Origin: an uncultured Gammaproteobacteria bacterium
Lineage (GTDB): Bacteria; Patescibacteriota; Patescibacteriia; S139-126
DNA: 64,000 nucleotides
Assembly (NCBI GenBank): GCA_964620905.1
Contig: CAZUKA010000001.1
Location: 222,524-286,523 of the forward strand
Direction of reading: 5' to 3'
The notes beneath the pieces were generated by a model that was given only the letters and a program-made list of their open reading frames with translations, was not told where the DNA came from and searched no databases. How positions within the stretch are numbered: position 1 is the stretch's first letter; each line of letters opens with the position of its first letter. Positions 3,808 through 32,345 of this stretch are shown here, piece by piece. The position numbers and the translations under genes are program-made.

Positions 3808-4905
3808 TTAACTAACCAAAAATTTTAAAGTTTTTTCTGCAACTTTTAGCCAATCAAATTGTTCCGCGTGTTTTAGACCCTGATTAACTAATGTTTGACG
3901 CGCGGCGAAATCAACATTTATTCTTTTGAGCAAAGCCACTAATTCAGATTTATTATCTGGCTCAAAATACCAAGCTGCCTGACCCCCTATTTCCGGCAAT
4001 GAGGTTGTATTGGAACAAATCACCGGACAGCCACAAGCCATAGCTTGAATAACAGGTAAACCAAAACCTTCAAACAGAGAAGGAAAAACAAAAGCTCTGG
4101 CCAAATTCAATATAACCGGAACATCTTCCTCGGCAATATATTCTAAATATTTTATTTTATCATTATGGTGGATAGCTTTTAATATATCATCCCCACCAAA
4201 ACCTAAACGACCTGCTAAGACTAAATTAAAGTCAGGATTATGACTTAAAAAAAGTTCAAAAGCAGCAACTAGCAATTTAATATTTTTCTTTTTTTCCAGA
4301 CGACCAATATAAAAGAAAAACGGTTTGTTAAAATTGTATTTTTCTTTTATTTGGGTTAATAGAGATTTATCCTGGATAATTCTATATTTTGATTTATCAA
4401 ATCCCAGCGGCATAACAGCAATTTTATCGGGAGAAACATTAAATCTATTTAAGATATCATTTTTGGTAAACTGTGAAATAGTAATTATTCTTTTAGCAAA
4501 TTTAATCGACCACCAAGCACTAAACCGATGATAAAATCTTGCAAGGGTCTGATATATTTCTGGATTGTGCAGAAAACCCAAATCATGAATAGTAACAACA
4601 CAGCGACTACGGTGAAACAAGGGCACACTATGAGCCGGAACAAATAAAATATCAGGTGGATTAATTAACATTTCCCAGCTCAATCGTAAATGAGTCCAAA
4701 TGTATTTGACTGGCCAGGATAAAATCTTGACGTGGAAATTTGTGGATAAATTTAAGGGCAAATCAAATGCATCTTTTCTGGTATATAGCCAATACTCATT
4801 AGTTTTATCAATTTTAGATAAATATGAAATTAAATGATAAGAATACCATTCTGTTCCAGTTTTATACTTTTTCCCGGCTCGTGAGGCATCAATACCAATA
4901 ATCAT
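3808..4905 (-). CDS. Glycosyltransferase family 4 (GT-B)
   Basis: C-terminal EX7E-type motif region FEGFGLPVIQAMACGCPVI typical of GT4 retaining glycosyltransferases. Confidence 0.65.
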   Translation of the reverse strand: MIIGIDASRAGKKYKTGTEWYSYHLISYLSKIDKTNEYWLYTRKDAFDLPLNLSTNFHVKILSWPVKYIWTHLRLSWEMLINPPDILFVPAHSVPLFHRSRCVVTIHDLGFLHNPEIYQTLARFYHRFSAWWSIKFAKRIITISQFTKNDILNRFNVSPDKIAVMPLGFDKSKYRIIQDKSLLTQIKEKYNFNKPFFFYIGRLEKKKNIKLLVAAFELFLSHNPDFNLVLAGRLGFGGDDILKAIHHNDKIKYLEYIAEEDVPVILNLARAFVFPSLFEGFGLPVIQAMACGCPVICSNTTSLPEIGGQAAWYFEPDNKSELVALLKRINVDFAARQTLVNQGLKHAEQFDWLKVAEKTLKFLVS

Positions 4906-4907
4906 AA

Positions 4908-5921
4908 CTATTTGGTGGCTAAAATACTTCGTTTATAGCTCTCTAAATTATCCAAAGCTATACCAGTACCTTTGACCACACATAACATCGGTTCATCAGC
5001 CACGTAAGCTGGTACACCTGTTGCTTGGGAAATCAAAGTATCTAATTTTCGCAAACTAGAAGTACCACCGGTAAACACAATACCTTTGTCTATGATATCG
5101 GCTGATAGTTCAGGTGGAGTTTTTTGCAAAACAGATTTAATGGCATTGATAATAGCTTCCAATTCATCCTGAATGGCTTCAGTTATATCATCAGAGGTTA
5201 AAGTAATAGTACGTGGTAAACCGGTAACCATATCACGACCACGAACTTCTTTACTCAAAACATCCTTGGAATCAAAAAAAAGAGCCGAACCAATATCTCT
5301 TTTGGCCTCTTCGGCTGTTTGTTCCCCGATGGCTAGATTGTACTTTCGACGGGTATAATCTTGAATTGCTGCGTCAAGTTTATTCCCCCCAACTCGAATT
5401 GAATTTGAAGCCACAATACCACCCAAAGAAATAACAGCTATTTCAGCAGTTCCACCACCAATATCAACTACCATATGACCAGAGGCAGAACCAATGGGAA
5501 TATTGGCCCCAATAGCTGCAGCAATCGGCTCTTTGATTATATAGGCTGCTTTGGCTCCCGCTGCCAAAGTAGCATCAATCACTGCTCGACGTTCTGTTGA
5601 AGTTATACCAGCTGGCACTGAAACCATGACCTCTGGTCGAAAAAATTTCACTCCACCCAATGACTTATTGATAAAATAACGTAACATCGCCTCAGTGGTT
5701 TTATAATCAGCAATTACACCATCTTTCAAAGGGCGTGAGGCAACAATCGTATCAGGTGTCCGACCTAACATTTCTTTGGCTTCCAATCCAACTGCTAAAA
5801 CCTTATTATCTATTTTTGAGACTGCTACAACTGATGGTTCATTGATAACTATTCCTCTTTTTGGTAGATGAACCAATGAATAAGTTGTCCCCAAATCAAT
5901 ACCAATTTTTTTAACAAACAT
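4908..5921 (-). CDS. mreB: Rod-shape determining actin homologue MreB
   Basis: MFVKKIGIDLGTTYSLVHLPKRGIVINEPSVVAV... with actin-fold phosphate motifs (DLGT, DIGGGTAEIAV, FTGGTS). Start chosen at the internal Met (5921), not the hydrophobic ORF extension. Confidence 0.8.
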   Translation of the reverse strand: MFVKKIGIDLGTTYSLVHLPKRGIVINEPSVVAVSKIDNKVLAVGLEAKEMLGRTPDTIVASRPLKDGVIADYKTTEAMLRYFINKSLGGVKFFRPEVMVSVPAGITSTERRAVIDATLAAGAKAAYIIKEPIAAAIGANIPIGSASGHMVVDIGGGTAEIAVISLGGIVASNSIRVGGNKLDAAIQDYTRRKYNLAIGEQTAEEAKRDIGSALFFDSKDVLSKEVRGRDMVTGLPRTITLTSDDITEAIQDELEAIINAIKSVLQKTPPELSADIIDKGIVFTGGTSSLRKLDTLISQATGVPAYVADEPMLCVVKGTGIALDNLESYKRSILATK

Positions 5922-6811: not shown

Positions 6812-7830
6812 AAAGCAATACCTGCTGATTTAATTTTCTTAGTTTTAAATATATAACGACGTTTTTCTTTGATAATTTTAAAATTTTTAAATATATCAAA
6901 CCATGACTTAAATAAAATTTGAGGCTGAAAAATCATTAAATAAATAATCTTTTTGCTTTCATAAACTAATAAATAAAAAAAATTGGGTAAAAATAAACGC
7001 AGACTAAGGTTTTTTATCAAGGTAATCAGATGATTACGATAGGAATAATAATTTATATAATATGGTTTGGTTTGATAACTGTTTTTCTTTTCCCATAAGG
7101 ATAGATCACCTTTTTGACGAGTCGCTGTACGTTTATGAAAAACAACTGCTTCAGGTAAATTGACAATATCCCAATTCCGCCACCGTAGTCGCCATGACAA
7201 ATCAATATCTTCTTTGTAAGAAATAAATAATTCATCAAAAAACTCTCGATCATAAGCTACATCATACAAAGCACTACGACGTAAAGCTACGGCCGTACCT
7301 GTAAATCCAAAAACTGGTTTTATTTCTTTTTGTTTATTTATTTCTACTTCACCTTCACCTAAATTTATAAACCGAAATTTTTTGTCAAAACCTAAACCCA
7401 TACTATCAATCACCTTAGTTGTATGATTATCCAACCATTTATAAATCAATGGATTTACTGCAGCAACTTTTGGATAGGTGTCTAAAAAAATCGTTAAATG
7501 AGAAAATAAATCCGGAGCCAAATAAACATCCTGGTTTAGCAATAATACATACCTTCCGCTAGTCCAATGAATTCCCTGGTTGTAAGCTTTAGCAAAACCA
7601 ACGTTCTGTTTATTTTTTACAATTGTTAAATTATTACCATATTTTTCAGCAATTATTTGCACGGTTTTATCTACTGAGTTATTATCAATAATTAAAATAT
7701 CAAAAAATTCATTAACCCGCTTTTGATAGTCAGGTGGCAAAATCTGGTTAAAAATTGAATCAAGACATTTTTCAATATAGGCTTGTCCATTCCAAGTCAC
7801 AATAATTATTGATATTTTAGGTTGTTTCAT
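6784..7830 (-). CDS. Glycosyltransferase family 2
   Basis: ISIIIVTWNGQAYIEKCLDSIFNQ ... ILIIDNNSVDKT, GT-A fold signature. Confidence 0.65.
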   Translation of the reverse strand: MKQPKISIIIVTWNGQAYIEKCLDSIFNQILPPDYQKRVNEFFDILIIDNNSVDKTVQIIAEKYGNNLTIVKNKQNVGFAKAYNQGIHWTSGRYVLLLNQDVYLAPDLFSHLTIFLDTYPKVAAVNPLIYKWLDNHTTKVIDSMGLGFDKKFRFINLGEGEVEINKQKEIKPVFGFTGTAVALRRSALYDVAYDREFFDELFISYKEDIDLSWRLRWRNWDIVNLPEAVVFHKRTATRQKGDLSLWEKKNSYQTKPYYINYYSYRNHLITLIKNLSLRLFLPNFFYLLVYESKKIIYLMIFQPQILFKSWFDIFKNFKIIKEKRRYIFKTKKIKSAGIALWLKQNFPL

Positions 7831-9301
7831 AAATTTTTTTTTCCGATTTATTGACCACTGCGACCAACCAAAACAAAATTCCCAAGCCTAAAGGGTGATT
7901 TAGGTAAGGTGTAGTTAGATTGGTAATTAATATTGCCACAAAAGCAAGCAAAAAAGCAACCGACAAATCTGTTTTTGCTAGCCAGGCTCGACTTAAAAGC
8001 AAATAGATAAAATATAAATAGACAAAAGTACCAACTAATCCAAATTTCAAAAAAATATCAAGGTAGCCCCATTCAAAAGCGTAAGTTGAATAATTATCGG
8101 CATATTCTTGTCCTAAGGATAAAATTCTAGGATCTCTACTTTGATAACTGACAACCGAGCCAAAACCTGAACCAAAAAATAGATTATTCTTAATAGCCAA
8201 TAATAAAGGTTCTAGCTGTTGTAAACGAGTGTTACTAGCTGGTTCAGAAGAAAAATTTTGTAAGCGACCTATAAACAAATCGTTACTAGTAACTGTTACC
8301 GCTGGCCAGGGGAATCTAATAACAAAAAAAACTAAAAAAGCTGATAAGAAAATAATGCTAAATAAAATCAATTTATATTTTAAAAATTGCCATAAACTGT
8401 TTTTTTGGAAAAAAATATAAACTAATAATACTACTAAACCGCTGATTAAACCAAGCCAAAAAGACCTTGAATAACTCATCAAAACAACAGATAAACCAAA
8501 TATTGCCAGCAAACCTAATTGATAAAAAGATAAAATTTCTATTTTCTTTTGATAAGTACGCCACCATAAATAGATAATCACCAAAAGTAAAAACAATGCC
8601 ATAATCTGACTTTGCATAAAAACACGCCAAAAATTACCTGCGACAAAAGTAATTTCTCCTAGTCTAAAATCTCTTGTCCAAAGATACAACTCATTCGCTA
8701 AGACTAAAAAATTATGAGAAAAAATATATAACAATACAACAGTTTTAATCCATAACCAAATTATTCCTGATAACCATATATGCCATAAATCCGACAGATA
8801 TTTTTTATCAAAAAACAACCAAGGGATAAACAGTAATAAATAAAGCCAAGCATTGCCGTCAAAAATAACATCTACTAAATTATTTTTAAAAAAACCATTT
8901 ATAAAAACAAACAATAAATAAACCATTAAACCTAAATAAACAAAAAATATTTTTTTTTCAATCAGATTAAATTTCGTCAAACTGATTCGGTTTAAAAAAA
9001 AATATTTAACAGATGAAATGATTACAATTAACCAAATGAACATACGTAGTGACAATGTTTGACCAAATATATCAACAGAAAATATATAACCAAAAGATCC
9101 TACCAATAATTCACCACTGGCAATCAGCAGACCATAATTTAAATTTCGCCAAGTTAACCAGCCAATTATTGCCGCGACAAAAAAATATACCAACTCCCGG
9201 GTTACCGGTTGTTGCCAGGTAATAAATGACAGGACTTCTATCAACAGTATAATAAAAAAGTAAGTCAATATCTTTTCTCTTTTTATTTTTAAAAAATTCA
9301 T
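7817..9301 (-). CDS. Polytopic membrane protein, O-antigen polymerase/ligase (Wzy/WaaL)-like
   Basis: 494 aa with at least 10 predicted TM helices and one larger extracytoplasmic loop near the C-terminus. Embedded in the GT2/GT4/flippase cluster. Assignment by context and topology only. Confidence 0.4.
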   Translation of the reverse strand: MNFLKIKREKILTYFFIILLIEVLSFITWQQPVTRELVYFFVAAIIGWLTWRNLNYGLLIASGELLVGSFGYIFSVDIFGQTLSLRMFIWLIVIISSVKYFFLNRISLTKFNLIEKKIFFVYLGLMVYLLFVFINGFFKNNLVDVIFDGNAWLYLLLFIPWLFFDKKYLSDLWHIWLSGIIWLWIKTVVLLYIFSHNFLVLANELYLWTRDFRLGEITFVAGNFWRVFMQSQIMALFLLLVIIYLWWRTYQKKIEILSFYQLGLLAIFGLSVVLMSYSRSFWLGLISGLVVLLVYIFFQKNSLWQFLKYKLILFSIIFLSAFLVFFVIRFPWPAVTVTSNDLFIGRLQNFSSEPASNTRLQQLEPLLLAIKNNLFFGSGFGSVVSYQSRDPRILSLGQEYADNYSTYAFEWGYLDIFLKFGLVGTFVYLYFIYLLLSRAWLAKTDLSVAFLLAFVAILITNLTTPYLNHPLGLGILFWLVAVVNKSEKKIYETT

Positions 9302-23320: not shown

Positions 23321-24817
23321 TTATTTAATTTCAACAATCACATTTTTCTCCAATGCTTTAAGAGCGAGTTTAATCCGATCCTGACTTTGTGCATAAAAAG
23401 TAAACAATTTATCTTTTACTCTCACTTTATCCTGATAATGAACATGCATATGAATTCCTGCGATTTTATCACTAGGTGCACCTAAATTTACACAAATTTC
23501 ATTGATAGCTTTGTTATTTATAAATACTACCCGACCATTTTTCTTGGCATGAATTTCATAATTCAGTGCCCCCAGTGCCACTTCATCGGAATCAATATCG
23601 GCATTACCTCCTTGAGCAGCAATAATCTTTTTCATTTGCCTATTAGCTTCACCACTAATTAATTGACGTTGAGCAATCTTTTCTCCTTGACCCAACTTAC
23701 AGAATCCAGCTAACTCTAGTAAATAGCCAGATAGCCTAACTGCTTTCTTTTCAAGATCTACTGGTCGTAATTCTTTTTGTTGTAATACTCTTAGTACATC
23801 TCTTGCTTCCAAAGCTGGTCCAATACCTCGACCGACTGGTTCAAATGATGGAGTTCTAACAACTTTCACCTTCATACCAAACTTTTTTGCTAAATACAAA
23901 AACTTTTTTTCAATTTCATCAGCAAATTTATTTTTTGGTATTTTGGTAGTTGGTCCGATTGGTAAATCAAGAACTAAATAATCAACCCCCATAGCCACCT
24001 TTTTGGCCATAATAGAGACTATCATTTTGTCATACGGTTCAATACCCAGTGGTCTAGTTATCCGTACGATTTTATCATCGGCTGGAGCTAAATTTACCCC
24101 ACCCCCCCAAACCATACAAGCATTGACCCGTTTTACAATCTTTTTTATTTCCGTCATAGAAAATGTTACTGGAGCTAAAACTTCCATTGTATCAGCTGTT
24201 CCTGATGGAGAAGTAATCGCCCGGCTGGAAGTTTTGGGAATGTACAATCCAAGCGATGAAACAATTGGTACCACGACCATTGTAGTTCGGTTCCCTGGCA
24301 GCCCTCCAACTGAATGTTTATCAACTGCTGGTACGTTCAAATTTAGCATTTCACCTGTTTCGGCAACTGCTTTTGAAGTATAGTAAAGTTCGTCTAAGGT
24401 ATAATCACGTAAATAACTGGAAGCTACATAATAAGTTGTCTCTATTTCTGAAAATCTATCATCAACAATATCTTTAATTATTGAATAGATTTCGTCGTAA
24501 TTTAATTTTTTACCAAAAATTTTTTTTCTAATTGCCTGAATGGATGGTGGCCGCGAAACAATCTCCACTTCGACTATTTCACTATCCAGAGAAGATTTTT
24601 TATTCCATAACTCTTTAAATAAACCAACTTCACCTGGTTTTACTTTGCTGGTAGTAGTTCTAATTTCAGCAATTCTTTTTAAACGATTATTCCAGGTTAA
24701 CTGAATTCTATCACCAGCCATTACTCCATAATACTCTGCTTCCTCCTCATTTATCACTACTACTGGTTCGTTGCCAGTAGAAAAATCCAATTTTTTTGAT
24801 TTTAAGAAAAAGGACAT
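23321..24817 (-). CDS. deoA: AMP phosphorylase (archaeal-type thymidine-phosphorylase family, DeoA-like)
   Basis: About 500 aa with an N-terminal extension preceding the glycosyl-transferase family-3 fold (HSVGGLPGNRTTMVVVPIV ... GIEPYDKMI). Immediately downstream of RuBisCO in the same operon. Confidence 0.7.
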   Translation of the reverse strand: MSFFLKSKKLDFSTGNEPVVVINEEEAEYYGVMAGDRIQLTWNNRLKRIAEIRTTTSKVKPGEVGLFKELWNKKSSLDSEIVEVEIVSRPPSIQAIRKKIFGKKLNYDEIYSIIKDIVDDRFSEIETTYYVASSYLRDYTLDELYYTSKAVAETGEMLNLNVPAVDKHSVGGLPGNRTTMVVVPIVSSLGLYIPKTSSRAITSPSGTADTMEVLAPVTFSMTEIKKIVKRVNACMVWGGGVNLAPADDKIVRITRPLGIEPYDKMIVSIMAKKVAMGVDYLVLDLPIGPTTKIPKNKFADEIEKKFLYLAKKFGMKVKVVRTPSFEPVGRGIGPALEARDVLRVLQQKELRPVDLEKKAVRLSGYLLELAGFCKLGQGEKIAQRQLISGEANRQMKKIIAAQGGNADIDSDEVALGALNYEIHAKKNGRVVFINNKAINEICVNLGAPSDKIAGIHMHVHYQDKVRVKDKLFTFYAQSQDRIKLALKALEKNVIVEIK

Positions 24818-24866: not shown

Positions 24867-26159
24867 TTAATTTTTCACATTTTGCCAATATTCAAGAGCA
24901 GTTTTGAGTTCTGGTCTGTTTTTGGCATAAGAATGTAAGTTTGCTCCCAAAGAAGCTGCTTCAACTGCATCTCTGGCAGCTACTGCCCCTGCAAAAGAAC
25001 CATCCGGATGACCATGAATACCACCGCCAAAATTGATAATTAAATTACGGCCTAAAATTTTAATAAGTTCTGATGCTAATCCAGGATGCAAACCCCCAGA
25101 AGCGATTGGCATCACCGGTTTTATTTTTGACCAATTTTCTCGCAAGTAATCTATCTCGCCGGCATCTTCTCTTAAAAAATCATTTAGGGTATCTACTTCA
25201 TGTGCGGTTCCTTCCATTTTACCCACCACCGTTCCTGTATGTAATTGATCAATACCAGCCAATCTTGATAATTTTGCTAAAACCAACATGCTCATTCCCT
25301 GGGTTGGATCTTTGGTAAACATACTATGACCCGCTCGGTGTCCATGTAAAATCAAACCTAAATTTTGTTTTCTTATTGATTGAATAGCTGACCATCCCAT
25401 TGCCACAATATCAACCATCACTACCCGTCCGCTTCTTTTTTTAACATATTTTGCTCTTTGTAAAGCAATGTCATAAGGACCAGTGATATTGAAAACAAAA
25501 ACTTTTCTTTCACCTGTCTCTTTTTCTACTTTTTTTCTGACCGCAATCAATTTATCAACTCTTTCATAAAAATTGTTAAACGTCAGCGAAGTAAGATTTT
25601 CATCATCTTTTATTATATCCACGCCCCCCCGCCAAGTTTCATAAGCTACCGCAGCAGTTTCTGCAACATCCAAACCAACTTTTGGTTTTATAATACTTCC
25701 TACTAATGCACGATTATAAACTTTCATAATTTTTCTTATCCCCCCAATCCCATGAAATGGACCTAAACAAAAGTTAATATATTTTTTTGGAAAAGCTATA
25801 TCTTCCAGCCGCAAACGTTCCACAATTTTCATACTAAATATATTGCCACCCAAAAAAGACAATAATTGTGGTAAATTACCAATTTCCGACAGCGCCAAAG
25901 GATATGCAACTTTTATAAAACCACGCCGCTTATCGACTTCATAAACATGAGGAGTCAATTTTATTTTAGTAGCTTCAGACAATGTTTCTAAGTGCGTCCA
26001 GGTACCAATCGATGATTCTCCCGCAATCGCTTCTGCTACTGTAGTAAAGGTCTGCCCTTTAGCGGGTAAAATATGATAAGTAACTAAAAACTCCTTGTCT
26101 AAATTTGGTTTATAATGTTGATCAATAAATCCTTGGTAAGAAGTGGTAAATTTTTTCAT
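24867..26159 (-). CDS. rbcL: Ribulose-1,5-bisphosphate carboxylase large subunit, form II/III-like
   Basis: Active-site motifs: KPKVGL (carbamylated Lys), GGVDIIKDDE, HGHRAGH, GGGIHGHPDG. About 430 aa, as for form III and II/III enzymes. Confidence 0.85.
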   Translation of the reverse strand: MKKFTTSYQGFIDQHYKPNLDKEFLVTYHILPAKGQTFTTVAEAIAGESSIGTWTHLETLSEATKIKLTPHVYEVDKRRGFIKVAYPLALSEIGNLPQLLSFLGGNIFSMKIVERLRLEDIAFPKKYINFCLGPFHGIGGIRKIMKVYNRALVGSIIKPKVGLDVAETAAVAYETWRGGVDIIKDDENLTSLTFNNFYERVDKLIAVRKKVEKETGERKVFVFNITGPYDIALQRAKYVKKRSGRVVMVDIVAMGWSAIQSIRKQNLGLILHGHRAGHSMFTKDPTQGMSMLVLAKLSRLAGIDQLHTGTVVGKMEGTAHEVDTLNDFLREDAGEIDYLRENWSKIKPVMPIASGGLHPGLASELIKILGRNLIINFGGGIHGHPDGSFAGAVAARDAVEAASLGANLHSYAKNRPELKTALEYWQNVKN

Positions 26160-26767
26160 AATTTATCAATTAATTGTTTTAAATTGCTTATAACCAAATC
26201 TGCTGATATTGGTTTAATATTTGTATTATCTCGATTATACCAACAGGTTTTAAAATTTATTTTCTTGGCGGCTCTGATATTTTCTATTTTATCATCAATA
26301 AACAAAGTTCGGGAGGGATTTAGTTTATATTTTTTTATCAGTTCCCGATAAATTTTTAGATCTGGTTTTTTGACATAATATTGCCAAGAATAAACTTTGC
26401 CTAAAAAATATTTTTGGAATTTAAATCTTTTTTCTAGATACTTTGACCATTCGCGAGGAATATTTGACAAAATAAAAAGGTTTTTATTTTGTTTACGAAA
26501 TAATCTTACTACTCTATGAAAATCTTTATCTAAATAATGTCTTAGATAAAATTTTTTCTCCAAAACAGTAAATTTTTTACCAACCCCCATCAACTTCCAA
26601 AATTTTTTTTGATTAATTTTACTAAGTGCATAATCATGATAAATTTTTCGGCAATATGAATGCTGCTTGTGTTGCGGTAAAATGGGGAAAAGTATATTTC
26701 TAATATTTTGTCCTTCGGAAATAATTACTCCATAAATATCAAACACAATATTTTCTATTTCAACCAT
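26156..26767 (-). CDS. HAD-superfamily hydrolase-like protein (haloacid-dehalogenase-type DxYG motif I)
   Basis: Motif I IVFDIYGVI (Asp nucleophile, D+2 replaced by Tyr as in L-2-haloacid dehalogenase-type members), motif II FILSN, motif III K in VKKPD, motif IV LFIDDKIEN. Overlaps rbcL by 4 bp and e2b2 by 13 bp. Confidence 0.45.
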   Translation of the reverse strand: MVEIENIVFDIYGVIISEGQNIRNILFPILPQHKQHSYCRKIYHDYALSKINQKKFWKLMGVGKKFTVLEKKFYLRHYLDKDFHRVVRLFRKQNKNLFILSNIPREWSKYLEKRFKFQKYFLGKVYSWQYYVKKPDLKIYRELIKKYKLNPSRTLFIDDKIENIRAAKKINFKTCWYNRDNTNIKPISADLVISNLKQLIDKL

Positions 26768-27681
26768 AAATATCTTTTTACAATGCTGGCTACTTGTTTT
26801 GGTTTTATCACGCCAAACTCTGTAATTAGACCACTGATCAACTTTGCTGGTACCCGATCAAAAGCGTAGTTCAATATTCGCACTTGCGCAGGTTTATTTG
26901 GCCAAATTTCTTTGTCTGATCTCATTTCAATTTTTACATTATTATGGTAGTCAAACTTCAATAAGCTGGTGGCAACAAAAAACGGTATTTTATTTAGATA
27001 AGCACTGGCCGCAATATCATAAGTTCCAATTTTATTGATAATACTACCATCTTTTTTTATAGCATCCGCTCCCACCACTATAGCTTGTATCATTAAATCT
27101 TTTCCAGAATATGGTGAGATTAAAAAACCACTCGCGCTATCTGCAAGCTGAGTAACAGGTATGTTTAAACGAATTAGATCTTTAGCAGTCAGTCGACCTT
27201 GGTATAAAGGTCTAGTTTCATCAGCAAAGACATGTAACTTAGGGTTTTTTTTATGTAAACTGGCAAATATTTTAACAACTATTGATGAATGACAATGGGT
27301 CAAAATATTATTGTATTTTTTCAAAGCCAAAACACCAAACTGGATTATGGAATTTTCGTTTTTTTTGATTAAGAGTTCATATTCCCCTAACCATTTTTTC
27401 AACAAAAATTTTAATTTTTTTAAATCAGTATTAGTTGGGATAGTAGAGATTTTTTGATGAAGAAATAGATATAAACTCTGGGCATACAATCCAGTCGGTC
27501 GAGCATAAGCTAAATTTTTAGTTGCTATTAAAAAATCGATTTTGAATGATTTAAAATTTTTATCAGTAGTAGTGTTGAGCAAAGACAATAATGTCTTGAT
27601 GGTTTCTTTAGCAATATTAGTTGCACCCTGAATTTCCAAATTTTTAATTTTTTTGACAACTTTGTTTATATTGATTGACAT
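26755..27681 (-). CDS. e2b2: Ribose-1,5-bisphosphate isomerase (eIF-2B alpha/beta/delta family)
   Basis: eIF2B-like fold (ADETRPLYQGRLTAKDLIRLNIPVTQLADSA ... AIVVGADAIKKDGSIINKIGT). Operon partner of RuBisCO and AMP phosphorylase. Confidence 0.7.
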   Translation of the reverse strand: MSININKVVKKIKNLEIQGATNIAKETIKTLLSLLNTTTDKNFKSFKIDFLIATKNLAYARPTGLYAQSLYLFLHQKISTIPTNTDLKKLKFLLKKWLGEYELLIKKNENSIIQFGVLALKKYNNILTHCHSSIVVKIFASLHKKNPKLHVFADETRPLYQGRLTAKDLIRLNIPVTQLADSASGFLISPYSGKDLMIQAIVVGADAIKKDGSIINKIGTYDIAASAYLNKIPFFVATSLLKFDYHNNVKIEMRSDKEIWPNKPAQVRILNYAFDRVPAKLISGLITEFGVIKPKQVASIVKRYLWLK

Positions 27682-27690
27682 GTTAATAAA

Positions 27691-29478
27691 CTAAAATTTA
27701 ATCTTATCACCGGGTTTTATTTTTTTGTCCAGTTCGGTGGTGGAAACAGGAAGAGTCTTTTTTTCTTTTGCCTTGATTTGCTCTGGTTGATTTTTAACTA
27801 AAATTTCCAATCTTCCCAACGCTTCACTAAGTGAAATTTCGGCTGGAGTTTCTTTGACCACATCTTCTACTAAAATTTTTTGACGTGACGGCTGACTAGA
27901 TTTGATCGGATGGAATGATTTTTTATTTTCTATTTTTGGCCAAGTTATCAATTTTTGCTTATATAACTTTAAGCAATCTGGACAAAATACTGGTCTGATA
28001 CCATCGGGTTGAAATTTAATCTTAACTTCCTTTTGACAATTCGAGCATTGGGCTGTATAAAAATTTTCGTTTGTATTATTTTTAGTTGTTATTATTTTCT
28101 TGGTTTGCAACTTACTGTCATCAGAAAAATTTATTTGCTTATTTTTTGTTTTTACCAACTCTGAACTTTGACTAAGTTCCTCGTTATTAAAACCAGCCCA
28201 TCGCGCAATTTTGTCTTCAATAACCTCTCTTTTGGTGGCATACCTTTCTCTGGTAACTTTGATAATTTTTTCTTCGTTCAGTTGATCTTTTGGTAGTGGA
28301 GGCAAAGTTGTTGCTGAAAAAGGCGTGGAAGCAAGACCATCAATCATTAATTTCAAATAAATATCATATTTCGCCAAATTTACTAAATCTGTCTCATCAA
28401 ACGTAGGGGTAAATTCTTTTGCTAAAAATTCAGCATCATCTGCACCTACTCGAAAAGTTACTAAAGTGCCAACATTACCAAAAACCGCGTCCCGCACGCG
28501 AGTTGAATCAGTGGTTACCAATTGGGCGATATATTGATGGGCAATAATCAAATTCAGACGGTACTTTCTGGCCTCCGACAAAATATCAGCGAAAGAATTG
28601 GTTACAAAATTTTGAAATTCATCAACATACAGATAAAAGTCCTCTCGTTTATTTTCTGGTATATCTACTCTACCCATTGCTGCCATTTGGATCTTAGTTA
28701 TCATCATGGCTCCCAGTAAAGCCGAAGCGTCTTCGCCAATTCTACCCTTTGAAAGATTGAGTAATAATATTTTCTTATTGTCCATAATTTCTCGTAAATC
28801 TATGGTCGATTTAACCTGACCAACAATATTGCGAATTAACGACAAAGATAGAAACTGACCAACTTTATTTTGAATTGGTGAAATAGCTTCCACCTGAAAC
28901 TGTTGGTTATATTTGGGATATTCTTGAGTCCAAAAACTCTTTACCACCGGATCGTTTATTTTATCAACGACTTTTTTTCGATACTCTTTATCAACTAATA
29001 TTCTAGTAACACCCAATAAAGTAGCCCCGGGGTAATCAAGTAATGCCAAGATGGCATTGCGTAATAAATATTCCAGACGCGGCCCCCAGGAGTCAGCCCA
29101 TAATTTTTTAAAAATGCCAATCAATCCAGACGCTACCAGATTTTTTTGATGTGGTTCGTCGACAGATTCTAAAATATTGAAAGCTAATGGATAATCAACG
29201 TCAGATGGATTAAAATAAACTACATCATTTATTCGCTGGGCTGGTATCGCATTTAATAAATCTTCAACCAATTCCCCATGCGGATCCACCACAGCTAAAC
29301 CATTTCCATTGTAAATATCTTGAATGGCCATATTCTTCAATACTTCTGATTTACCCGAGCCAGTTTTACCAATGACATACATATGACGACGACGGTCGTC
29401 TTTTTTTATACCAAATTCGCGCGTTTGATTACGAAAATTTGTTTTAGCAAAATAAGTTATTTCTGGATGGAAATTCAT
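27691..29478 (-). CDS. TraG/VirD4/HerA-superfamily P-loop ATPase with C-terminal zinc ribbon
   Basis: Walker A HMYVIGKTGSGKSEVL, Walker B LYVDEFQNF, C-terminal CSNCQ-x17-CPDC ribbon and Lys-rich tail. No N-terminal TM segments. Confidence 0.55.
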   Translation of the reverse strand: MNFHPEITYFAKTNFRNQTREFGIKKDDRRRHMYVIGKTGSGKSEVLKNMAIQDIYNGNGLAVVDPHGELVEDLLNAIPAQRINDVVYFNPSDVDYPLAFNILESVDEPHQKNLVASGLIGIFKKLWADSWGPRLEYLLRNAILALLDYPGATLLGVTRILVDKEYRKKVVDKINDPVVKSFWTQEYPKYNQQFQVEAISPIQNKVGQFLSLSLIRNIVGQVKSTIDLREIMDNKKILLLNLSKGRIGEDASALLGAMMITKIQMAAMGRVDIPENKREDFYLYVDEFQNFVTNSFADILSEARKYRLNLIIAHQYIAQLVTTDSTRVRDAVFGNVGTLVTFRVGADDAEFLAKEFTPTFDETDLVNLAKYDIYLKLMIDGLASTPFSATTLPPLPKDQLNEEKIIKVTRERYATKREVIEDKIARWAGFNNEELSQSSELVKTKNKQINFSDDSKLQTKKIITTKNNTNENFYTAQCSNCQKEVKIKFQPDGIRPVFCPDCLKLYKQKLITWPKIENKKSFHPIKSSQPSRQKILVEDVVKETPAEISLSEALGRLEILVKNQPEQIKAKEKKTLPVSTTELDKKIKPGDKIKF

Positions 29479-29481
29479 AAT

Positions 29482-31014
29482 TTAAAAAGGTAAATTTTCC
29501 GGCGCTTGTCCGGGAGATGTTGTTTGATCTGCAGATAAGTTTTCTGTTTTCTGTTTTTTATTTCCGTCATACTCAAACTGATTTTTTTCTGTTGGTAAAA
29601 CCACTTCAAAATCAGTTTGATCAGAAGATGAAATCCCATTAAAAATAGGTTTCGATTTAATTTCATTTTTAACCTCGCCAGGGATATTTACTGTTATGGG
29701 CTCTCCACCACGTTTCTGATCTACCGGTAACTGGGCAGGTGGCTCTGATCGTTTGCTTTCAACTTTTTTAACCAAAGGTGCTTTCACGGTTAAAGCAGGA
29801 AAATGATAAATAGTTGCTAACTCTTCAATATTTAAGATAAATGGTTTATTGCCAAAACGTAAATCGCCAATTCTTTTCTTAAAAGCTTTCATGATCTTGG
29901 TTTGCTTTTTAGCTAAACGTTTTTCCACCCGCCAATAATCAGCAGAGGTAGTTGTAGTTTTTACCTTAGCGAAATAGTTCATGTTTAATGTATTAAATTG
30001 GTTTAAACCTCCCATGATCGGAGCTACTCCCCGATTCTTATCAAAAATTTCACGTCGGGCTAAATAAATAAATCTACCTTTGACAAAAAAACCAATTTTC
30101 GACATTTTTTCTTCAATCGCTTGTAAAACATCTTTTTGACCACTAGTTAAATATAACATTTTATTTGGTTCATCACCTTTGCTTTTTTCATCAGCTGTAC
30201 CTTCAGCTTTAACAACAAAAGTATCTCCCAAAAATTTCATAAAAGACAAAAAAGGAATGGTTAAATAATAACCTAAATCTTTCTGCTGAGTTTGCTTTTC
30301 ACCAATAATTTTTTTTACTTCCTTTTCGCACTCTTTTTTCCAACTATCTCCCGTGGGTGTAATTATCCATTGCAAACAAGCAAATTCGCCTCCTTTTAAA
30401 TGTGACATCACCTCCAATAAAGATGAGATTGGATCTTTTATTTCTTGTGATAAAGTATGTTCAAAACGCGGATAGGTTCTAATAGGATAAGGGTTCTTAT
30501 TCCCCAATTTTATATCAGTGCCCCAAAGCTCATAGGTATCATTAGGAAATTCATCGGGAAAATTTTGGGCATAATCACTAAATGGCATAATTTCAGCGTC
30601 CGGATACTGGGCAAAAAAAGCCGCTTCTACCACGTCTTTATATTTTTCTGGAAAATGAACTAAATATTGGATATAACCTTCCAGACTGACCAATTCTAAA
30701 CTAAAAGGTAACTGATGCTGACCCAACCAATATTTTTCATATAAATTAGGTCCACTAAGAGTCCCGGCTAAAGTTGCGAAAACTTGTTCTACTGCTTTTG
30801 GTGATTGCTCGTTGTTTTTGGGAATATCAACCGCCAACAACATAAATTTGGTCGCACGTAAAAATTTTTCCCGACGCGCTGGTAACCAGAACCATTTAAT
30901 AAAAAAACTTAAAATAAAAAAAAGAAAAAATATTGAAAAAATTCCCAATAAAATTGGTCCGGCAACTGAGATAATTTTAGGATCTACATTTAGTGGTGAC
31001 AAATCGATGGTCAT
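29482..31014 (-). CDS. Hypothetical single-pass membrane protein (operon partner of the ATPase)
   Basis: 510 aa. One N-terminal TM (ISVAGPILLGIFSIFFLFFILSFFIKWFWL), then a large domain with no recognisable motif. 4-bp gaps to both neighbours. Confidence 0.4.
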   Translation of the reverse strand: MTIDLSPLNVDPKIISVAGPILLGIFSIFFLFFILSFFIKWFWLPARREKFLRATKFMLLAVDIPKNNEQSPKAVEQVFATLAGTLSGPNLYEKYWLGQHQLPFSLELVSLEGYIQYLVHFPEKYKDVVEAAFFAQYPDAEIMPFSDYAQNFPDEFPNDTYELWGTDIKLGNKNPYPIRTYPRFEHTLSQEIKDPISSLLEVMSHLKGGEFACLQWIITPTGDSWKKECEKEVKKIIGEKQTQQKDLGYYLTIPFLSFMKFLGDTFVVKAEGTADEKSKGDEPNKMLYLTSGQKDVLQAIEEKMSKIGFFVKGRFIYLARREIFDKNRGVAPIMGGLNQFNTLNMNYFAKVKTTTTSADYWRVEKRLAKKQTKIMKAFKKRIGDLRFGNKPFILNIEELATIYHFPALTVKAPLVKKVESKRSEPPAQLPVDQKRGGEPITVNIPGEVKNEIKSKPIFNGISSSDQTDFEVVLPTEKNQFEYDGNKKQKTENLSADQTTSPGQAPENLPF

Positions 31015-31018
31015 GGTT

Positions 31019-32137
31019 TTAAGAGGCAGCTAATTTATATGTGCCATCGGCGTTTTTAGTAAATCTTTTTTTATTCATTAGAGCCAAGGCAATAGTACTT
31101 TCCTTAACCAAGCGCTTCTGTAAAACTTCTTTTATTATTTCCTGCTTAGTCAATGGTTCAATGGAATTCTGAATAATTTCTTTTATCACCTCGGCTACAA
31201 CTCCTGGTTTATAACCCCATTCTTTCAAAGCATAAATTCCGCGACCAATCAACACATATCTACTATTATCTAAAATTAGTTCATTGTGGATAGTGGCCGC
31301 ATGCGCTTTCTTGCCGTCAAAATTTGCTTCGTTTATTTTTGTTGCTATTTCACGAAAATGCATTGGTTGACCGCCATGTTTGAGGACTAAATAAATTTTA
31401 TCATTCATCCGACGCGGTGAAATTAAAGGCCAATTATAAAAACCCCAATCGCCAAATGGATTGACTTTCAATTTTTTAGATAATTTGATGTAAGACAAAA
31501 AAATATCAAGATTTATTTTTTCTTGCCATTTCATACCAATCTCATCTTTTTTAAATTGTTGCCACAATTCTTCTGTAGTAAATAAACGATTGGCTCGTTT
31601 TATCATTTCTTCGGTTGCCAATATTACTTCGGATAAAATTTGCGAATTAAAATCCGGCAGTTGCCAACCAGCTTTGAAATTTTTATTTTCTCTTATAGGT
31701 AAAAACTGATCTTTGGCCAGTTCTAAAAAGAAAACAACAAAATTATCGTCTATTTTTTCATTAACCAATTCCTTTACTTTTCTAATTAATTCATTAGCTT
31801 CAATTACTCCACCTAAATCACGAATTATCTGTTCAACCACAATCAATGAATGGTTTAATTCTGTATTATCACGCAAAAATTTTTTTAGTTGTTTAATGCT
31901 TACTACTTCAATCTGTCGCACCCTCTCTCTAGTGATATTATAAACCTTGCCAATATCCTCCAAAGTATAACGTTTAGCTTCAATATTTAATCCATGACGT
32001 AAAGCAATCACATCTTTTTCCCTTGTTGGTAGTAGAGACAAGATTTCGTTGATAATAATTTTCGGATTAAATAAAGCTGCTTCTTCTTTAATTTGAGTAG
32101 CAATTACTTTTTCTAAAATTGAATCATTATTTGTCAT
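31019..32137 (-). CDS. Sigma-70 region-4 domain protein with C-terminal HARE-HTH-like domain
   Basis: N-terminus TREKDVIALRHGLNIEAKRYTLEDIGKVYNITRERVRQIEVVSIKQLKKF is a region 4.2 HTH. C-terminus PMHFREIATKINE ... YVLIGRGIYALKEWGY resembles the HARE-HTH of the RNAP delta subunit. Confidence 0.55.
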   Translation of the reverse strand: MTNNDSILEKVIATQIKEEAALFNPKIIINEILSLLPTREKDVIALRHGLNIEAKRYTLEDIGKVYNITRERVRQIEVVSIKQLKKFLRDNTELNHSLIVVEQIIRDLGGVIEANELIRKVKELVNEKIDDNFVVFFLELAKDQFLPIRENKNFKAGWQLPDFNSQILSEVILATEEMIKRANRLFTTEELWQQFKKDEIGMKWQEKINLDIFLSYIKLSKKLKVNPFGDWGFYNWPLISPRRMNDKIYLVLKHGGQPMHFREIATKINEANFDGKKAHAATIHNELILDNSRYVLIGRGIYALKEWGYKPGVVAEVIKEIIQNSIEPLTKQEIIKEVLQKRLVKESTIALALMNKKRFTKNADGTYKLAAS

Positions 32138-32168
32138 ACTATTACATTAATAATACCCTAATATTATT

Positions 32169-32197
32169 AGTATACCAAATTTTTGCCAATCTGTCAA
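32169..32197 (-). promoter_or_regulatory. Sigma70-type promoter with extended -10 for the 32137..27691 operon
   Basis: Minus strand reads TTGACA (plus 32192-32197), a 17-nt spacer, then TGgTATACT (plus 32169-32174 is the -10). About 30 nt upstream of the ATG at 32137. Confidence 0.5.
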
Positions 32198-32232
32198 ATA
32201 TATGTTTGTATTAAGTTTCACAAAAATTAAAT

Positions 32233-32252
32233 TCCACGGCTATACGGCCGTG
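32233..32252 (-). terminator. Hairpin downstream of the EamA-like gene (probable terminator/insulator)
   Basis: ccacggct-atac-ggccgtgg, an 8-bp GC-rich stem followed on the minus strand by a T-rich tract. Confidence 0.4.
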
Positions 32253-32345
32253 GTATCTATAAAACTAGTATTGACTAAAATATACTATCTAAAAGAAAAA
32301 TTCCCTGATTAATTATAAATTAAATATTTAATCTATCTAGTTGGT

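Follow-up and report, generated by a model that had tools for sequence, protein, structure and literature searches.

A HAD-IA hydrolase without the Asp+2 general acid/base, encoded between R15P isomerase and form III RuBisCO, as a candidate accessory phosphatase of the pentose-bisphosphate pathway

The window analysed in this study, a stretch of DNA of 64,000 nucleotides, contains on its minus strand a gene array in the order e2b2-HAD-rbcL-deoA. Its first gene (26755..27681) encodes a homologue of the ribose-1,5-bisphosphate (R15P) isomerase of the IF-2B family (PF01008, 3.8e-54; 165 bits against TIGR00511, below the cut-off of that model). The product of rbcL (24867..26159) is a form III RuBisCO that scores 506.3 bits against the NCBIfam type III model (cut-off 497.45 bits), whose relatives carry the label form III-c and whose catalytic motifs K184-D-D-E and H272-x-H-R are invariant in the alignment. 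The last gene, deoA (23321..24817), encodes a homologue of AMP/NMP phosphorylase, which passes PRK04350 with 543 bits and reaches 529.8 bits against TIGR03327 (cut-off 535). The gene between e2b2 and rbcL (26156..26767) is an ATG-started open reading frame for a protein of 203 residues, whose assignment as a HAD-IA hydrolase with a helical C1 cap is based on matches to Pfam and NCBIfam models, on an AF2 model and on its orthologs. As described in an earlier note on this DNA and confirmed by the coordinates of the reading frames and the minus-strand read, this gene overlaps with both of its neighbours. Its start and the stop of e2b2 share 13 bp (26755..26767), with the ATG located inside the 3' end of e2b2 ('...tat tta tgg ttg aaa tag'), whereas its stop and the start of rbcL form an ATGA overlap of 4 bp (26156..26159), where the TGA and the ATG share bases ('aaattATGAaaaaa'). 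The HAD gene is in this sense a physically integral part of the salvage operon. No Shine-Dalgarno-like sequence was found upstream of the ATGA overlap, and the promoters returned by a promoter and terminator scan were at the level of shuffled background (55 found, 51.7 expected). Short gaps and overlaps between genes are usual in the compact genome of the window, and 9 bp separate the end of a TraG-like gene from e2b2. Since this unrelated gene also abuts e2b2, overlap alone is no proof of a shared function.

The membership of the encoded protein in the HAD superfamily is far above chance, with matches to PF00702 at 2.8e-13 (51.1 bits, cut-off 26.4) and to PF13419 at 7.6e-12 (46.1 bits, cut-off 23.8). 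It also belongs to HAD-IA variant 3 as defined by TIGR01509 (56.5 bits, cut-off 29.4), a model that is matched by all 42 family members tested. The AF2 model, with a pLDDT of 90.9, consists of the core and a helical C1 cap, which extends over approximately residues 15–82 (26522..26725) and, as delineated from model secondary structure and conservation, comprises a beta-hairpin flap and helices; its residues G19, L26, P28, R40, Y43, F56-W57, E70 and F73 are conserved throughout the family. The four HAD motifs that had been recognized in the earlier note are all present. They include motif I (I-V-F-D10-I-Y12-G-V, 26726..26749) with the nucleophile D10 and a tyrosine at the position termed Asp+2, motif II (L-F-I-L-S101-N102, 26462..26479), motif III (K133-K134-P135, 26363..26371) with its invariant K134, and motif IV (F-I-D158-D159-K-I-E-N163, 26279..26302), which is of the DD type and predicted to bind Mg2+. 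The catalytic scaffold composed of D10, S101, K134, D158, D159 and N163 is invariant in orthologs of 48–98% identity.

Motif I had been assigned to the type found in L-2-haloacid dehalogenases, and its DxYG(V) sequence indeed reads so. The window protein and the dehalogenase L-DEX YL (PDB 1jud) have in common the D-x-Y-G stretch, the S-N of motif II, a K-P-D...Y pattern and a TCWxNR strand, and L-2-haloacid dehalogenases were the top hits of the predicted model among the 50 Foldseek matches listed (TM ~0.74), but the specific likeness is confined to motif I and the C-terminal TCWxNR strand. L-DEX YL has no metal site and relies on T14, S175, N177 and D180 for catalysis. In the alignment with 1jud, its residues S175, S176, N177 and D180 are paired with D158, D159, K160 and N163, and T14 with V14. 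Motif IV of the window protein is thus of the form DD-K..N instead of S-S-N..D, with a predicted Mg2+ site that implies phosphoryl transfer, and this motif together with the score of 31.6 bits against the HAD_type_II model TIGR01428 (cut-off 125.4) rules out a dehalogenase identity. An absence of phosphoryl transfer, which would leave the protein either as a dehalogenase-like carbon-centred hydrolase or as a catalytically inactive protein that binds RuBisCO or takes part in its assembly, could draw on motif I, the TCWxNR strand and the structural similarity, but is very remote in light of the described replacements and the invariance of the Mg-binding DD pair and of all phosphatase motifs.

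The canonical DxD general acid/base of HAD phosphatases is absent from motif I, where its position is occupied by Y12. The tyrosine emphasized in the earlier note is thus present, although it constitutes one variant in a family in which an aspartate at this position is missing throughout: the six most frequent residues among 147 family representatives are M (62), G (32), F (14), Y (12), I (8) and W (4). Judged by its sequence, the protein is a member of this large, unannotated 'D-x-hydrophobic-G-V' family, whose clusters carry uninformative names ('HAD-IA family hydrolase' or 'putative hydrolase') and in some cases bear the label Aenigmatarchaeota.

The lack of Asp+2 bears on the earlier proposal of a phosphomutase that might supply a missing entry step for ribose-1-phosphate (R1P), since the chemistry of beta-phosphoglucomutase (beta-PGM) depends on this acid/base. 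A phosphopentomutase-like HAD would interconvert R1P and R5P via R15P, in the same way as beta-PGM proceeds via glucose-1,6-bisphosphate. Such an activity would be compatible with the HAD-IA C1-cap fold, it would use a pathway metabolite, R15P, as expected intermediate or cofactor, and its substrate R1P would be the product of a YfiH-like nucleoside phosphorylase that is encoded nearby in another locus (L016). We nevertheless regard it as highly improbable and have rejected it, since Asp+2 is absent family-wide, the beta-PGM models TIGR01990 and TIGR02009 do not match the window protein at E <= 0.01, and neither a beta-PGM nor a nucleotidase, the two structural relationships that had been considered, appears among the 50 Foldseek matches listed. 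A beta-PGM model is matched by only 4 of the 42 family members, and the scores against pyrimidine 5'-nucleotidase models stay far below their cut-offs (TIGR01993, 35.8 of 142.9 bits; TIGR02254, 33.4 of 159.9; PRK09449, 26 of 183). The notion of a missing step does not hold either, as R1P enters through a kinase, which is already known from archaea (PMC9700705; Aono 2015, as cited in PMC5113843), an activity that cannot be supplied by a HAD protein. A role as phosphomutase or kinase is thus unlikely.

That the protein is probably active as a phosphatase is suggested by analogy to relatives which are catalytically competent without Asp+2. [quoted passage not shown] AsDMS is a proven Mg2+-dependent phosphatase of the HAD-IA type with a four-helix C1 cap, whose motif I (D33-L-G35) also lacks Asp+2 and whose motif IV 'IDDKxEN' is identical to that of the window protein. 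However, the similarity encompasses the core without motif I or the substrate-defining cap, and AsDMS is distinguished by its fusion to a terpene cyclase, its activity on drimenyl diphosphate and its genomic context. The alpha-D-glucose-1-phosphate phosphatase YihX of E. coli (PDB 2b0c, 8pno; profile E 5.5e-19) is a variant-3 member of HAD-IA as well and contains a DDxxxN motif IV. It is a proven Mg-dependent phosphatase in which Asp+2 is replaced (D-L-G-N-V), and the literature searched on its mechanism contained nothing on a compensation for the missing general acid. In contrast to the window protein, YihX belongs to a DxGxV rather than a DxMGV/DxYGV branch and lacks the W57/W107 family signature; the window protein scores 37.3 bits against the YihX model NF006991, whose equivalog cut-off is 295.

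In a survey of 22 species-level e2b2-rbcL loci, a HAD gene occupies the slot between both genes in two and is missing in 20, including L012, whose rbcL is 78% identical and whose flanking synteny is the same. This is the absence from most operons that the earlier note had named as counter-evidence. The gene is thus dispensable, yet it is no incidental one-off insertion. In all eight ortholog clusters (48–98% identity) it is located between e2b2 and rbcL, the 4-bp overlap with rbcL is kept in every ortholog locus for which gene calls were returned, and the overlap with e2b2 measures 13 bp in L001, L005, L009 and L092 and 16 bp in L095. Its divergence follows that of rbcL, with 57–61% identity accompanied by 87–90% in rbcL and 48–52% by 81–83%. 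The linkage recurs in distant lineages. A family member of 38% identity (P0016) is found on an archaeal-type contig in the arrangement rbcL(-)|HAD(+)-e2b2(+), next to an rbcL that is only 46% identical to that of the window, and another of 30% identity (P0047) in the order e2b2-80aa-HAD-rbcL-143aa-deoA, on contigs that also hold a nuclease of the XPG/FEN type and an archaeal-looking set of genes without TFIIS. The association with RuBisCO thus survives rearrangement and deep divergence. In a neighbour-joining tree P0016 is not sister to the CPR clade but groups with P0047 and P0036 in a star-like radiation, from which a single origin of the linkage does not follow.

Most family members examined show no link to RuBisCO (P0017, P0018, P0024, P0025, L102-L106, L111). 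We found no residue signature that would distinguish linked from unlinked members and, by inspection of neighbours, no recurrent gene context around other DxMGV members, while a metagenome scan with the HAD alignment retrieved mostly the YihX-like DxGGV branch, with two orthologs among the matches listed. The protein might be a housekeeping HAD whose substrate lies outside the pathway, for instance a damaged nucleotide, a generic sugar phosphate or the phosphate of a lipid or isoprenoid, and whose gene rides in a compact co-directional array. This explanation would account for the mostly unrelated contexts of the broad family, the absence of the gene from most operons, the proximity of the unrelated TraG-like gene to e2b2, the use of isoprenoid diphosphates (AsDMS, the N-domain of sEH) or glucose-1-phosphate (YihX) by the nearest characterised relatives and the richness of the cap in aromatics (Y12, Y43, F56, W57, F73, W107, W176). 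We consider it possible but doubtful, as it is difficult to reconcile with the position kept in all eight ortholog clusters, with the two further lineages in which family members adjoin rbcL as well as e2b2 in other gene orders, and with an enrichment of HAD genes in the slot upstream of rbcL. The preserved position and the members beside archaeal-type rbcL and e2b2 also uphold that part of the earlier proposal which linked the gene to the pathway, whereas its mutase version has not stood.

The enrichment upstream of form III rbcL extends to HAD proteins of other types. In L016, a cap-less DFYNV HAD is found just upstream of rbcL, following the YfiH-like gene, whereas in the DPANN loci L071 and L066 this position is taken by a canonical DxD HAD, whose best NCBIfam match is the RuBP 5-phosphatase model NF053830 (218 and 256 bits, cut-off 330). 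The slot holds four of the six HAD reading frames that were detected within 6 kb in 80 rbcL loci, an excess for which a rough binomial estimate gives P ~0.001, or ~0.009 if L066 and L071 are counted as one event. A HAD gene directly adjoins rbcL in all four lineages, but e2b2 in only two. As separate observations, the operon in L053 has a MazG-like NTP pyrophosphohydrolase as neighbour, and a relationship to MazG of an 80-residue reading frame in L181 was not confirmed (no Pfam match, pairwise E 0.01).

A different role would be that of a feeder enzyme cleaving an activated anomeric or pyrophosphoryl phosphate, either from PRPP to yield R15P and Pi or from NDP/NTP to yield NMP, or, at a branch-point, converting R15P to R5P that would feed PRPP and nucleotide salvage. 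The loss of the general acid would suit good leaving groups, as YihX hydrolyses an anomeric alpha-1-phosphate and AsDMS cleaves the terminal phosphate off a diphosphate ester, and the YfiH-like nucleoside-processing gene in L016 and the MazG-like gene in L053 are feeder-type neighbours in the operons of other lineages. Moreover, the conversion of PRPP to R15P has until now been viewed as a heat-driven abiotic reaction (Finn & Tabita 2004, as summarised in PMC5113843), which makes it unlikely to proceed in CPR bacteria of cold aquifers. However, the leaving-group argument is weak because AsDMS also cleaves an ordinary alkyl monophosphate, APRT and DeoA already convert PRPP to R15P, and the consistent contact is to rbcL rather than e2b2, which renders a feeder role unlikely. 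Its version as a PRPP 1-beta-phosphatase (PRPP -> ribose-1,5-bisphosphate + Pi), or a close anomeric-phosphate-specific hydrolase, we regard as improbable; the 'D-x-hydrophobic-G-V' family would in this case have dropped its general acid because the leaving group is phosphate or an anomeric oxygen, and the enzyme would, if confirmed, provide an enzymatic entry of PRPP/R5P into R15P, RuBP and 3-PGA for cold-living CPR bacteria and for DPANN-type archaea.

HAD phosphatases whose genes accompany those of RuBisCO or R15P isomerase are known from several systems. CbbY is a HAD-IA phosphatase of xylulose-1,5-bisphosphate (XuBP) that is encoded in cbb operons and acts in metabolite repair (PMC10212915), the haloarchaeal RuBP phosphatase is a HAD hydrolase whose gene shares an operon with that of R15P isomerase in a pentose-bisphosphate pathway (PMC9700705), and TK1734 and TK2301 of Thermococcus provide further precedents for HAD phosphatases linked to this context (PMC11032457). 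All of CbbY, the phosphoglycolate phosphatases and the RuBP phosphatase keep Asp+2, which the window protein lacks. CbbY, as a C1-cap HAD-IA phosphatase encoded with RuBisCO, is our favoured functional model, although it retains DxD, partners a form I/II RuBisCO and activase instead of the form III NMP pathway, and its structures (PDB 4uat/4uar) match at E 0.65–0.69 over 41 residues only. The haloarchaeal RuBP 5-phosphatase, with its canonical DxD, replaces RuBisCO rather than accompanying it; its model NF053830 is weakly matched by 10 of the 42 family members (best 1.3e-10) but not by the window protein at E <= 0.01, and the relatives of that family are instead the DPANN HADs of L066 and L071. 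A comparable trio of an IF-2B-family isomerase, a RuBisCO-family protein and HAD phosphatases is found in methionine salvage with MtnA, the RuBisCO-like MtnW and MtnX/MtnC. There, the phosphatases belong to other HAD subfamilies (TIGR01691, 24.2 for the window protein, cut-off 128), whereas the rbcL of the window encodes a genuine form III carboxylase and its neighbour an NMP phosphorylase. Finally, the protein could clear the RuBisCO oxygenase side product 2-phosphoglycolate in analogy to CbbZ or TK1734, given that HAD-IA phosphoglycolate phosphatases are encoded in cbb operons, that a dedicated enzyme matters even in anaerobic Thermococcus with its form III RuBisCO (PMC11032457), and that the respective models are matched by 25 of the 42 family members, with a weak match of PRK13222 to the window protein (5e-7). 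Such a function is quite unlikely, since the protein reaches 29.4 of the 225 bits set for PRK13222 and also falls short of TIGR01449 (cut-off 180), the known enzymes keep Asp+2, and a cap so rich in aromatics is no obvious fit for a small anion as substrate.

The observation made in the earlier note is thus confirmed and its interpretation partly supported. We propose, with a probability of roughly 40%, that the gene encodes a phosphatase which assists the pentose-bisphosphate (NMP-salvage) pathway as an optional accessory enzyme, with a substrate from the class of pentose or pentulose 1,5-bisphosphates. It would share a transcript with the genes of R15P isomerase and form III RuBisCO, be coupled to them in translation and give rise to a Mg2+-dependent HAD-IA phosphohydrolase with C1 cap that works without the Asp+2 general acid/base. 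We infer both its tie to the pathway and its substrate class from the described context. The enzyme may remove one phosphate from a 1,5-bisphosphate handled by RuBisCO or the isomerase, with the misfire product xylulose-1,5-bisphosphate, surplus RuBP or R15P as candidate substrates, and thus serve as a repair or overflow valve functionally resembling CbbY or the haloarchaeal RuBP phosphatase. A role comparable to that of CbbY, CbbZ or the haloarchaeal enzyme is, by analogy, the best reading of the data.

In CPR bacteria and DPANN archaea, the AMP/NMP-salvage module deoA-e2b2-rbcL has a central place in energy and carbon metabolism as currently modelled. In the literature on CPR/DPANN RuBisCO that we searched, its genes are described as consecutive or fused, with no mention of a HAD or phosphatase partner. 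In several distant lineages, a fourth gene, coding for an Asp+2-less HAD hydrolase of an uncharacterised family, is embedded in this module. Other HAD types occur in the same slot next to rbcL elsewhere. Both findings suggest a tendency of form III RuBisCO pathways to acquire a phosphatase that serves in repair, overflow or feeding, as do the Calvin-cycle operons with CbbY and CbbZ. The protein is small and easily expressed, and its function would either extend the map of the pathway or name a first role in an unannotated family.

The HAD gene (26156–26767, minus strand, ATG start) encodes a protein of 203 residues and is located between e2b2, coding for a homologue of ribose-1,5-bisphosphate isomerase (26755–27681, minus; PF01008, 3.8e-54), and the gene of the RuBisCO large subunit rbcL (24867–26159, minus), which is followed downstream by an AMP-phosphorylase-like deoA (23321–24817, minus). 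This RuBisCO reaches 506.3 bits with the NCBI type III model and thereby passes its cut-off of 497.45; its relatives carry the label form III-c, and the catalytic motifs K-D-D-E and H-x-H-R show no variation when 20 relatives are aligned. When read on the minus strand, the last 13 bp of e2b2, stop codon included, overlap with the beginning of the HAD gene, whose TGA in turn overlaps with the ATG of rbcL as ATGA, in line with the coordinates and overlaps described in an earlier note; no Shine-Dalgarno-like sequence precedes either the HAD or the rbcL start. Three further co-directional genes lead into e2b2 with gaps of 3–9 bp, one encoding a protein with sigma70_r4 and HARE-HTH domains (31019–32137), one a 510-residue protein lacking a Pfam match, whose homologue in the compared locus L011 is a DUF8128 protein (29482–31014), and, next to e2b2 itself, a TraG/VirD4-like ATPase whose C-terminus bears a treble-clef zinc finger (27691–29478). 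Genes are packed tightly and in one direction over the whole region, so that their overlap is by itself weak evidence of a common function. A housekeeping HAD unrelated to the pathway that hitch-hikes in this array is the main rival of the function proposed below, although we consider it unlikely. Many CPR RuBisCO loci keep the TraG-like gene in synteny with e2b2 (57–81% identity; L012, L014, L018, L021–L023). The top promoter-like site of the region (TTGACA-17-TATACT with upstream TG; 32197–32169, minus) is found just downstream of a GC-rich terminator-like hairpin (32253–32234; both within 32160–32260), in light of which the sigma-like gene would be the first of a long transcription unit including the RuBisCO genes, with promoter-like matches in the region being no more frequent than in shuffled sequence.

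The protein matches PF00702 (2.8e-13) and PF13419 (7.6e-12) and passes a single NCBIfam model, the generic HAD-IA variant 3 (TIGR01509; 56.5 vs 29.4 bits), with the specific models for glucose-1-phosphatase, pyrimidine nucleotidases, type II dehalogenase, phosphoglycolate phosphatase and enolase-phosphatase all remaining 3- to 10-fold under their cut-offs. Its four HAD motifs (D10-I-Y12-G-V; S101-N102; K134-P135; D158-D159-K-I-E-N163) are embedded in a predicted Rossmann-like core with a small helical C1 cap at residues ~15–82 (AlphaFold2 from 14 sequences; pLDDT 90.9, pTM 0.89). A Foldseek search of the PDB with this model retrieved the generic HAD-IA C1 group, including L-2-haloacid dehalogenases (TM ~0.74), the HAD domain of drimenol synthase, HDHD4, BT-2542, the N-domain of soluble epoxide hydrolase and YihX, and neither a beta-phosphoglucomutase nor a 5'-nucleotidase is found among the 50 matches listed. 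The reading of motif I as DxYG(V/T), reminiscent of L-2-haloacid dehalogenases, was confirmed, and the protein also shares, per alignment, the C-terminal TCWxNR strand of L-DEX YL (sequence checked against 1jud). The dehalogenase-type motif I carries no mechanistic implication here. The essential residues S175, S176, N177 and D180 of L-DEX YL align with D158, D159, K160 and N163 of our protein, which constitute the Mg2+-binding motif IV of a phosphatase, and this pairing together with a TIGR01428 score far under the cut-off (31.6 vs 125.4) rules out a dehalogenase.

When 1.84 billion cluster representatives were scanned exhaustively with HMMER, 5974 relatives were identified (358 at E <= 1e-10). 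Among 147 single-domain top matches, the position two residues after the nucleophilic aspartate (Asp+2) is occupied by M (62), G (32), F (14), Y (12), I (8) or W (4), and Tyr12 is thus not special to the window protein. The coherent signature G19-H20, L26-x-P28, K/R40, Y43, F56-W57, E70, S-N-x-P-x-x-W107, K-P, D-D-x-x-x-N, T-x-W-x-x-R179 and D190 marks a large family that carries generic names only, such as 'HAD-IA family hydrolase', with some members from Aenigmatarchaeota. Codon 20 (26708–26710) of the window gene encodes Gln in place of the conserved His20, which is found in the 98% identical P0001, in all other orthologs and in the more distant P0016; the Gln is either a natural variant or a sign that His20 is not catalytic.

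The absent Asp+2, the general acid/base of canonical DxD HADs, raises the question of catalytic activity. The best match of solved structure is the N-terminal HAD domain of the drimenol synthase AsDMS (E 1e-15 singly, 3e-23 by family profile), which shares an identical motif IV 'IDDKxEN'. In its crystal structure, DXD 'has diverged to D33-L34-G35', which 'eliminates the general acid', Mg2+ is bound via D33, D186 and the carbonyl of G35, and the domain hydrolyses drimenyl diphosphate stepwise with release of two phosphates (PMC12232559). A second relative, the alpha-D-glucose-1-phosphate phosphatase YihX of E. coli, carries the motif I D-L-G-N-V (profile E 5.5e-19; PMC4251788). Because both enzymes are active without Asp+2 and the catalytic scaffold is invariant among orthologs down to 48% identity, the window protein is best regarded as an active Mg2+-dependent phosphohydrolase. 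We consider it very improbable that it is a pseudoenzyme or carries out non-phosphoryl chemistry. Mutase chemistry of the beta-PGM type depends on the acid/base function of Asp+2, whose absence disfavours the phosphomutase that had also been considered in the earlier note and leaves it hardly credible.

Every placeable ortholog resides between e2b2 and rbcL (eight clusters of 48–98% identity: P0001–P0005, P0014, P0015 and L023, a 'Candidatus Paceibacter sp.' MAG). The overlap with rbcL measures 4 bp in every ortholog locus with gene calls, that with e2b2 measures 13 bp in four loci but 16 bp in L095, and deoA is located downstream wherever the contig reaches far enough. The identities of HAD and rbcL run in parallel (57–61% with 87–90%; 48–52% with 81–83%), in agreement with a single insertion that was then inherited vertically under purifying selection. 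In L011 (7096–8007; MAG GCA_037440425.1), e2b2, just upstream of the HAD, is called at only 73 residues, with tblastn finding 59% identity over the full length, which suggests a frameshift, a pseudogene or an assembly error. One genome per GTDB species was scanned with a RuBisCO alignment, and 22 of the 80 loci examined have a same-strand e2b2 at most 2 kb upstream of rbcL; an intervening HAD ORF occurs in only two of the 22. The spacer of L012, whose rbcL is 78% identical and which shares the synteny TraG-e2b2-rbcL-deoA-BacA, comprises 191 bp without ORF. The gene is thus a conserved and integral part of the salvage operon in this clade but optional across operons, and given its absence from most of them, by which the earlier note had itself proposed to judge, it is not a core step of the pathway.

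A HAD beside rbcL recurs in other lineages, which speaks against an incidental insertion. P0016, the nearest non-orthologous representative (38% identity, motif I D-L-L-G-T), immediately precedes e2b2 on its contig and has a form III rbcL as its divergent neighbour; this rbcL is only 46% identical to the window gene and 64% to DPANN and other archaeal loci. P0047, the closest relative of P0016 (30% identical to the query, D-L-M-G-T), is found on archaeal-type contigs of up to 443 kb in the order e2b2, 80 residues, HAD, rbcL, 143 residues, deoA, ApgM-like mutase and SAM synthetase. The second HAD-bearing species-level locus, L016, contains two extra genes (4397–5710) in the e2b2-rbcL interval of a CPR-type operon that continues with deoA; the first encodes a Cu-oxidase_4/YfiH-type protein (PF02578, 282 residues), the second a cap-less HAD of 141 residues with all four motifs (motif I D-F-Y-N-V). 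Finally, a canonical DxD HAD (FDLDDTL, GDNxxxD) is located just upstream of a form III rbcL (~6001) in L071 (5270–5986, Pacearchaeota MAG) and L066 (4749–5453, Nanoarchaeia MAG), with neither e2b2 nor deoA within 6 kb. Its best NCBIfam match, by a wide margin, is NF053830, ribulose-1,5-bisphosphate (RuBP) 5-phosphatase (218 and 256 bits, cut-off 330); whereas in haloarchaea RuBP phosphatase replaces RuBisCO, here an enzyme resembling it resides beside RuBisCO. The slot immediately upstream of rbcL holds four of the six HAD ORFs detected by the family HMM within 6 kb of 80 rbcL genes, for which a rough binomial with ten slots per locus, conditioned on HMM-detectable HADs and thus only indicative, gives P ~0.001 (~0.009 with L066 and L071 as one event).

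Against this, a link to RuBisCO is lacking for other family members (P0017, P0018, P0024, P0025, L102–L106/L111) and, among the matches listed, for 78 metagenome loci with more distant relatives, most of which belong to the YihX-like DxGGV branch, and we found no residue pattern that separates linked from unlinked members. In one locus of this branch (L152, 1379–5461), a D-L-G-G-V HAD lies between a divergent MtnA-like isomerase and a 768-residue protein, taken on visual inspection for a GH65-type glycoside phosphorylase, after which comes a transporter-like protein. This neighbourhood hints at a role of the branch in sugar-1-phosphate metabolism. The archaeal-type operons also conserve a Cys-rich protein of ~130–146 residues between rbcL and deoA (L181, 6933–7364; L052, 7193–7633; L053, 7279–7665), with an N-terminal hydrophobic helix, the recurring motif CEV.RP.YKC...NC.YWG...C...L..EWY...LC..N.YH...LDCSNLK.ACN and no Pfam match. 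In the archaeal RuBisCO operon of L053, a MazG-like nucleotide pyrophosphohydrolase (7699–8016; PF03819, 37.5 bits) directly upstream of deoA could supply NMPs to the phosphorylase; an 80-residue ORF of L181 (4758–5000) was not confirmed as its relative.

HAD phosphatases encoded with RuBisCO or R15P isomerase have well-established precedents. CbbY in cbb operons hydrolyses the misfire product xylulose-1,5-bisphosphate (PMC10212915), CbbZ and TK1734 remove 2-phosphoglycolate, even in anaerobic Thermococcus with its form III RuBisCO, TK2301 prefers RuBP (PMC11032457), and haloarchaea contain a strictly RuBP-specific HAD phosphatase in an operon with R15P isomerase (PMC9700705). As the HAD immediately adjoins rbcL in all four lineages found, and e2b2 in only two, and as the same slot in DPANN is taken by a RuBP-phosphatase-like HAD, we favour, by context and analogy, an accessory enzyme centred on rbcL, with a probability of about 0.4. 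It would hydrolyse one phosphate off a pentose or pentulose 1,5-bisphosphate, such as xylulose-1,5-bisphosphate, surplus RuBP or R15P, and thereby act as a repair or overflow valve. However, the protein does not qualify by sequence for the families of CbbY, CbbZ/TK1734 or RuBP phosphatase, all of which keep Asp+2. A 2-phosphoglycolate phosphatase appears quite improbable. The second rival is an enzyme that feeds the pathway or sits at a branch of it, with PRPP, R15P, ribose-1-phosphate or NDPs as substrates. It draws on the chemistry of the relatives without Asp+2, whose substrate is an anomeric phosphate in YihX and a diphosphate ester in AsDMS, and is still improbable. Its most interesting form would be the conversion of PRPP to R15P, which has so far been considered abiotic and heat-dependent and hence unlikely in CPR of a 14 °C aquifer (PMC5113843). 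The step that the earlier note had regarded as unresolved, the entry of nucleoside-derived ribose-1-phosphate, is already assigned in archaea to a kinase, which is ATP-dependent in haloarchaea (PMC9700705) and ADP-dependent in Thermococcus (PMC5113843).

Collectively, a phosphatase auxiliary to the pathway, as proposed in that note, is the best reading, with corrections on ribose-1-phosphate entry, mutase activity, motif I and the optional presence of the gene across operons. The searchable literature on CPR/DPANN RuBisCO describes deoA, e2b2 and rbcL as consecutive or fused and does not mention a HAD or phosphatase partner (PMC5113843, PMC6389311). The substrate is directly testable with this small protein in recombinant form. 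While the attachment of HAD phosphatases to RuBisCO pathways is already known, what is new is a different, uncharacterised family without general acid, its place in a form III NMP-salvage module and its recurrence across CPR bacteria and archaeal-type contigs.
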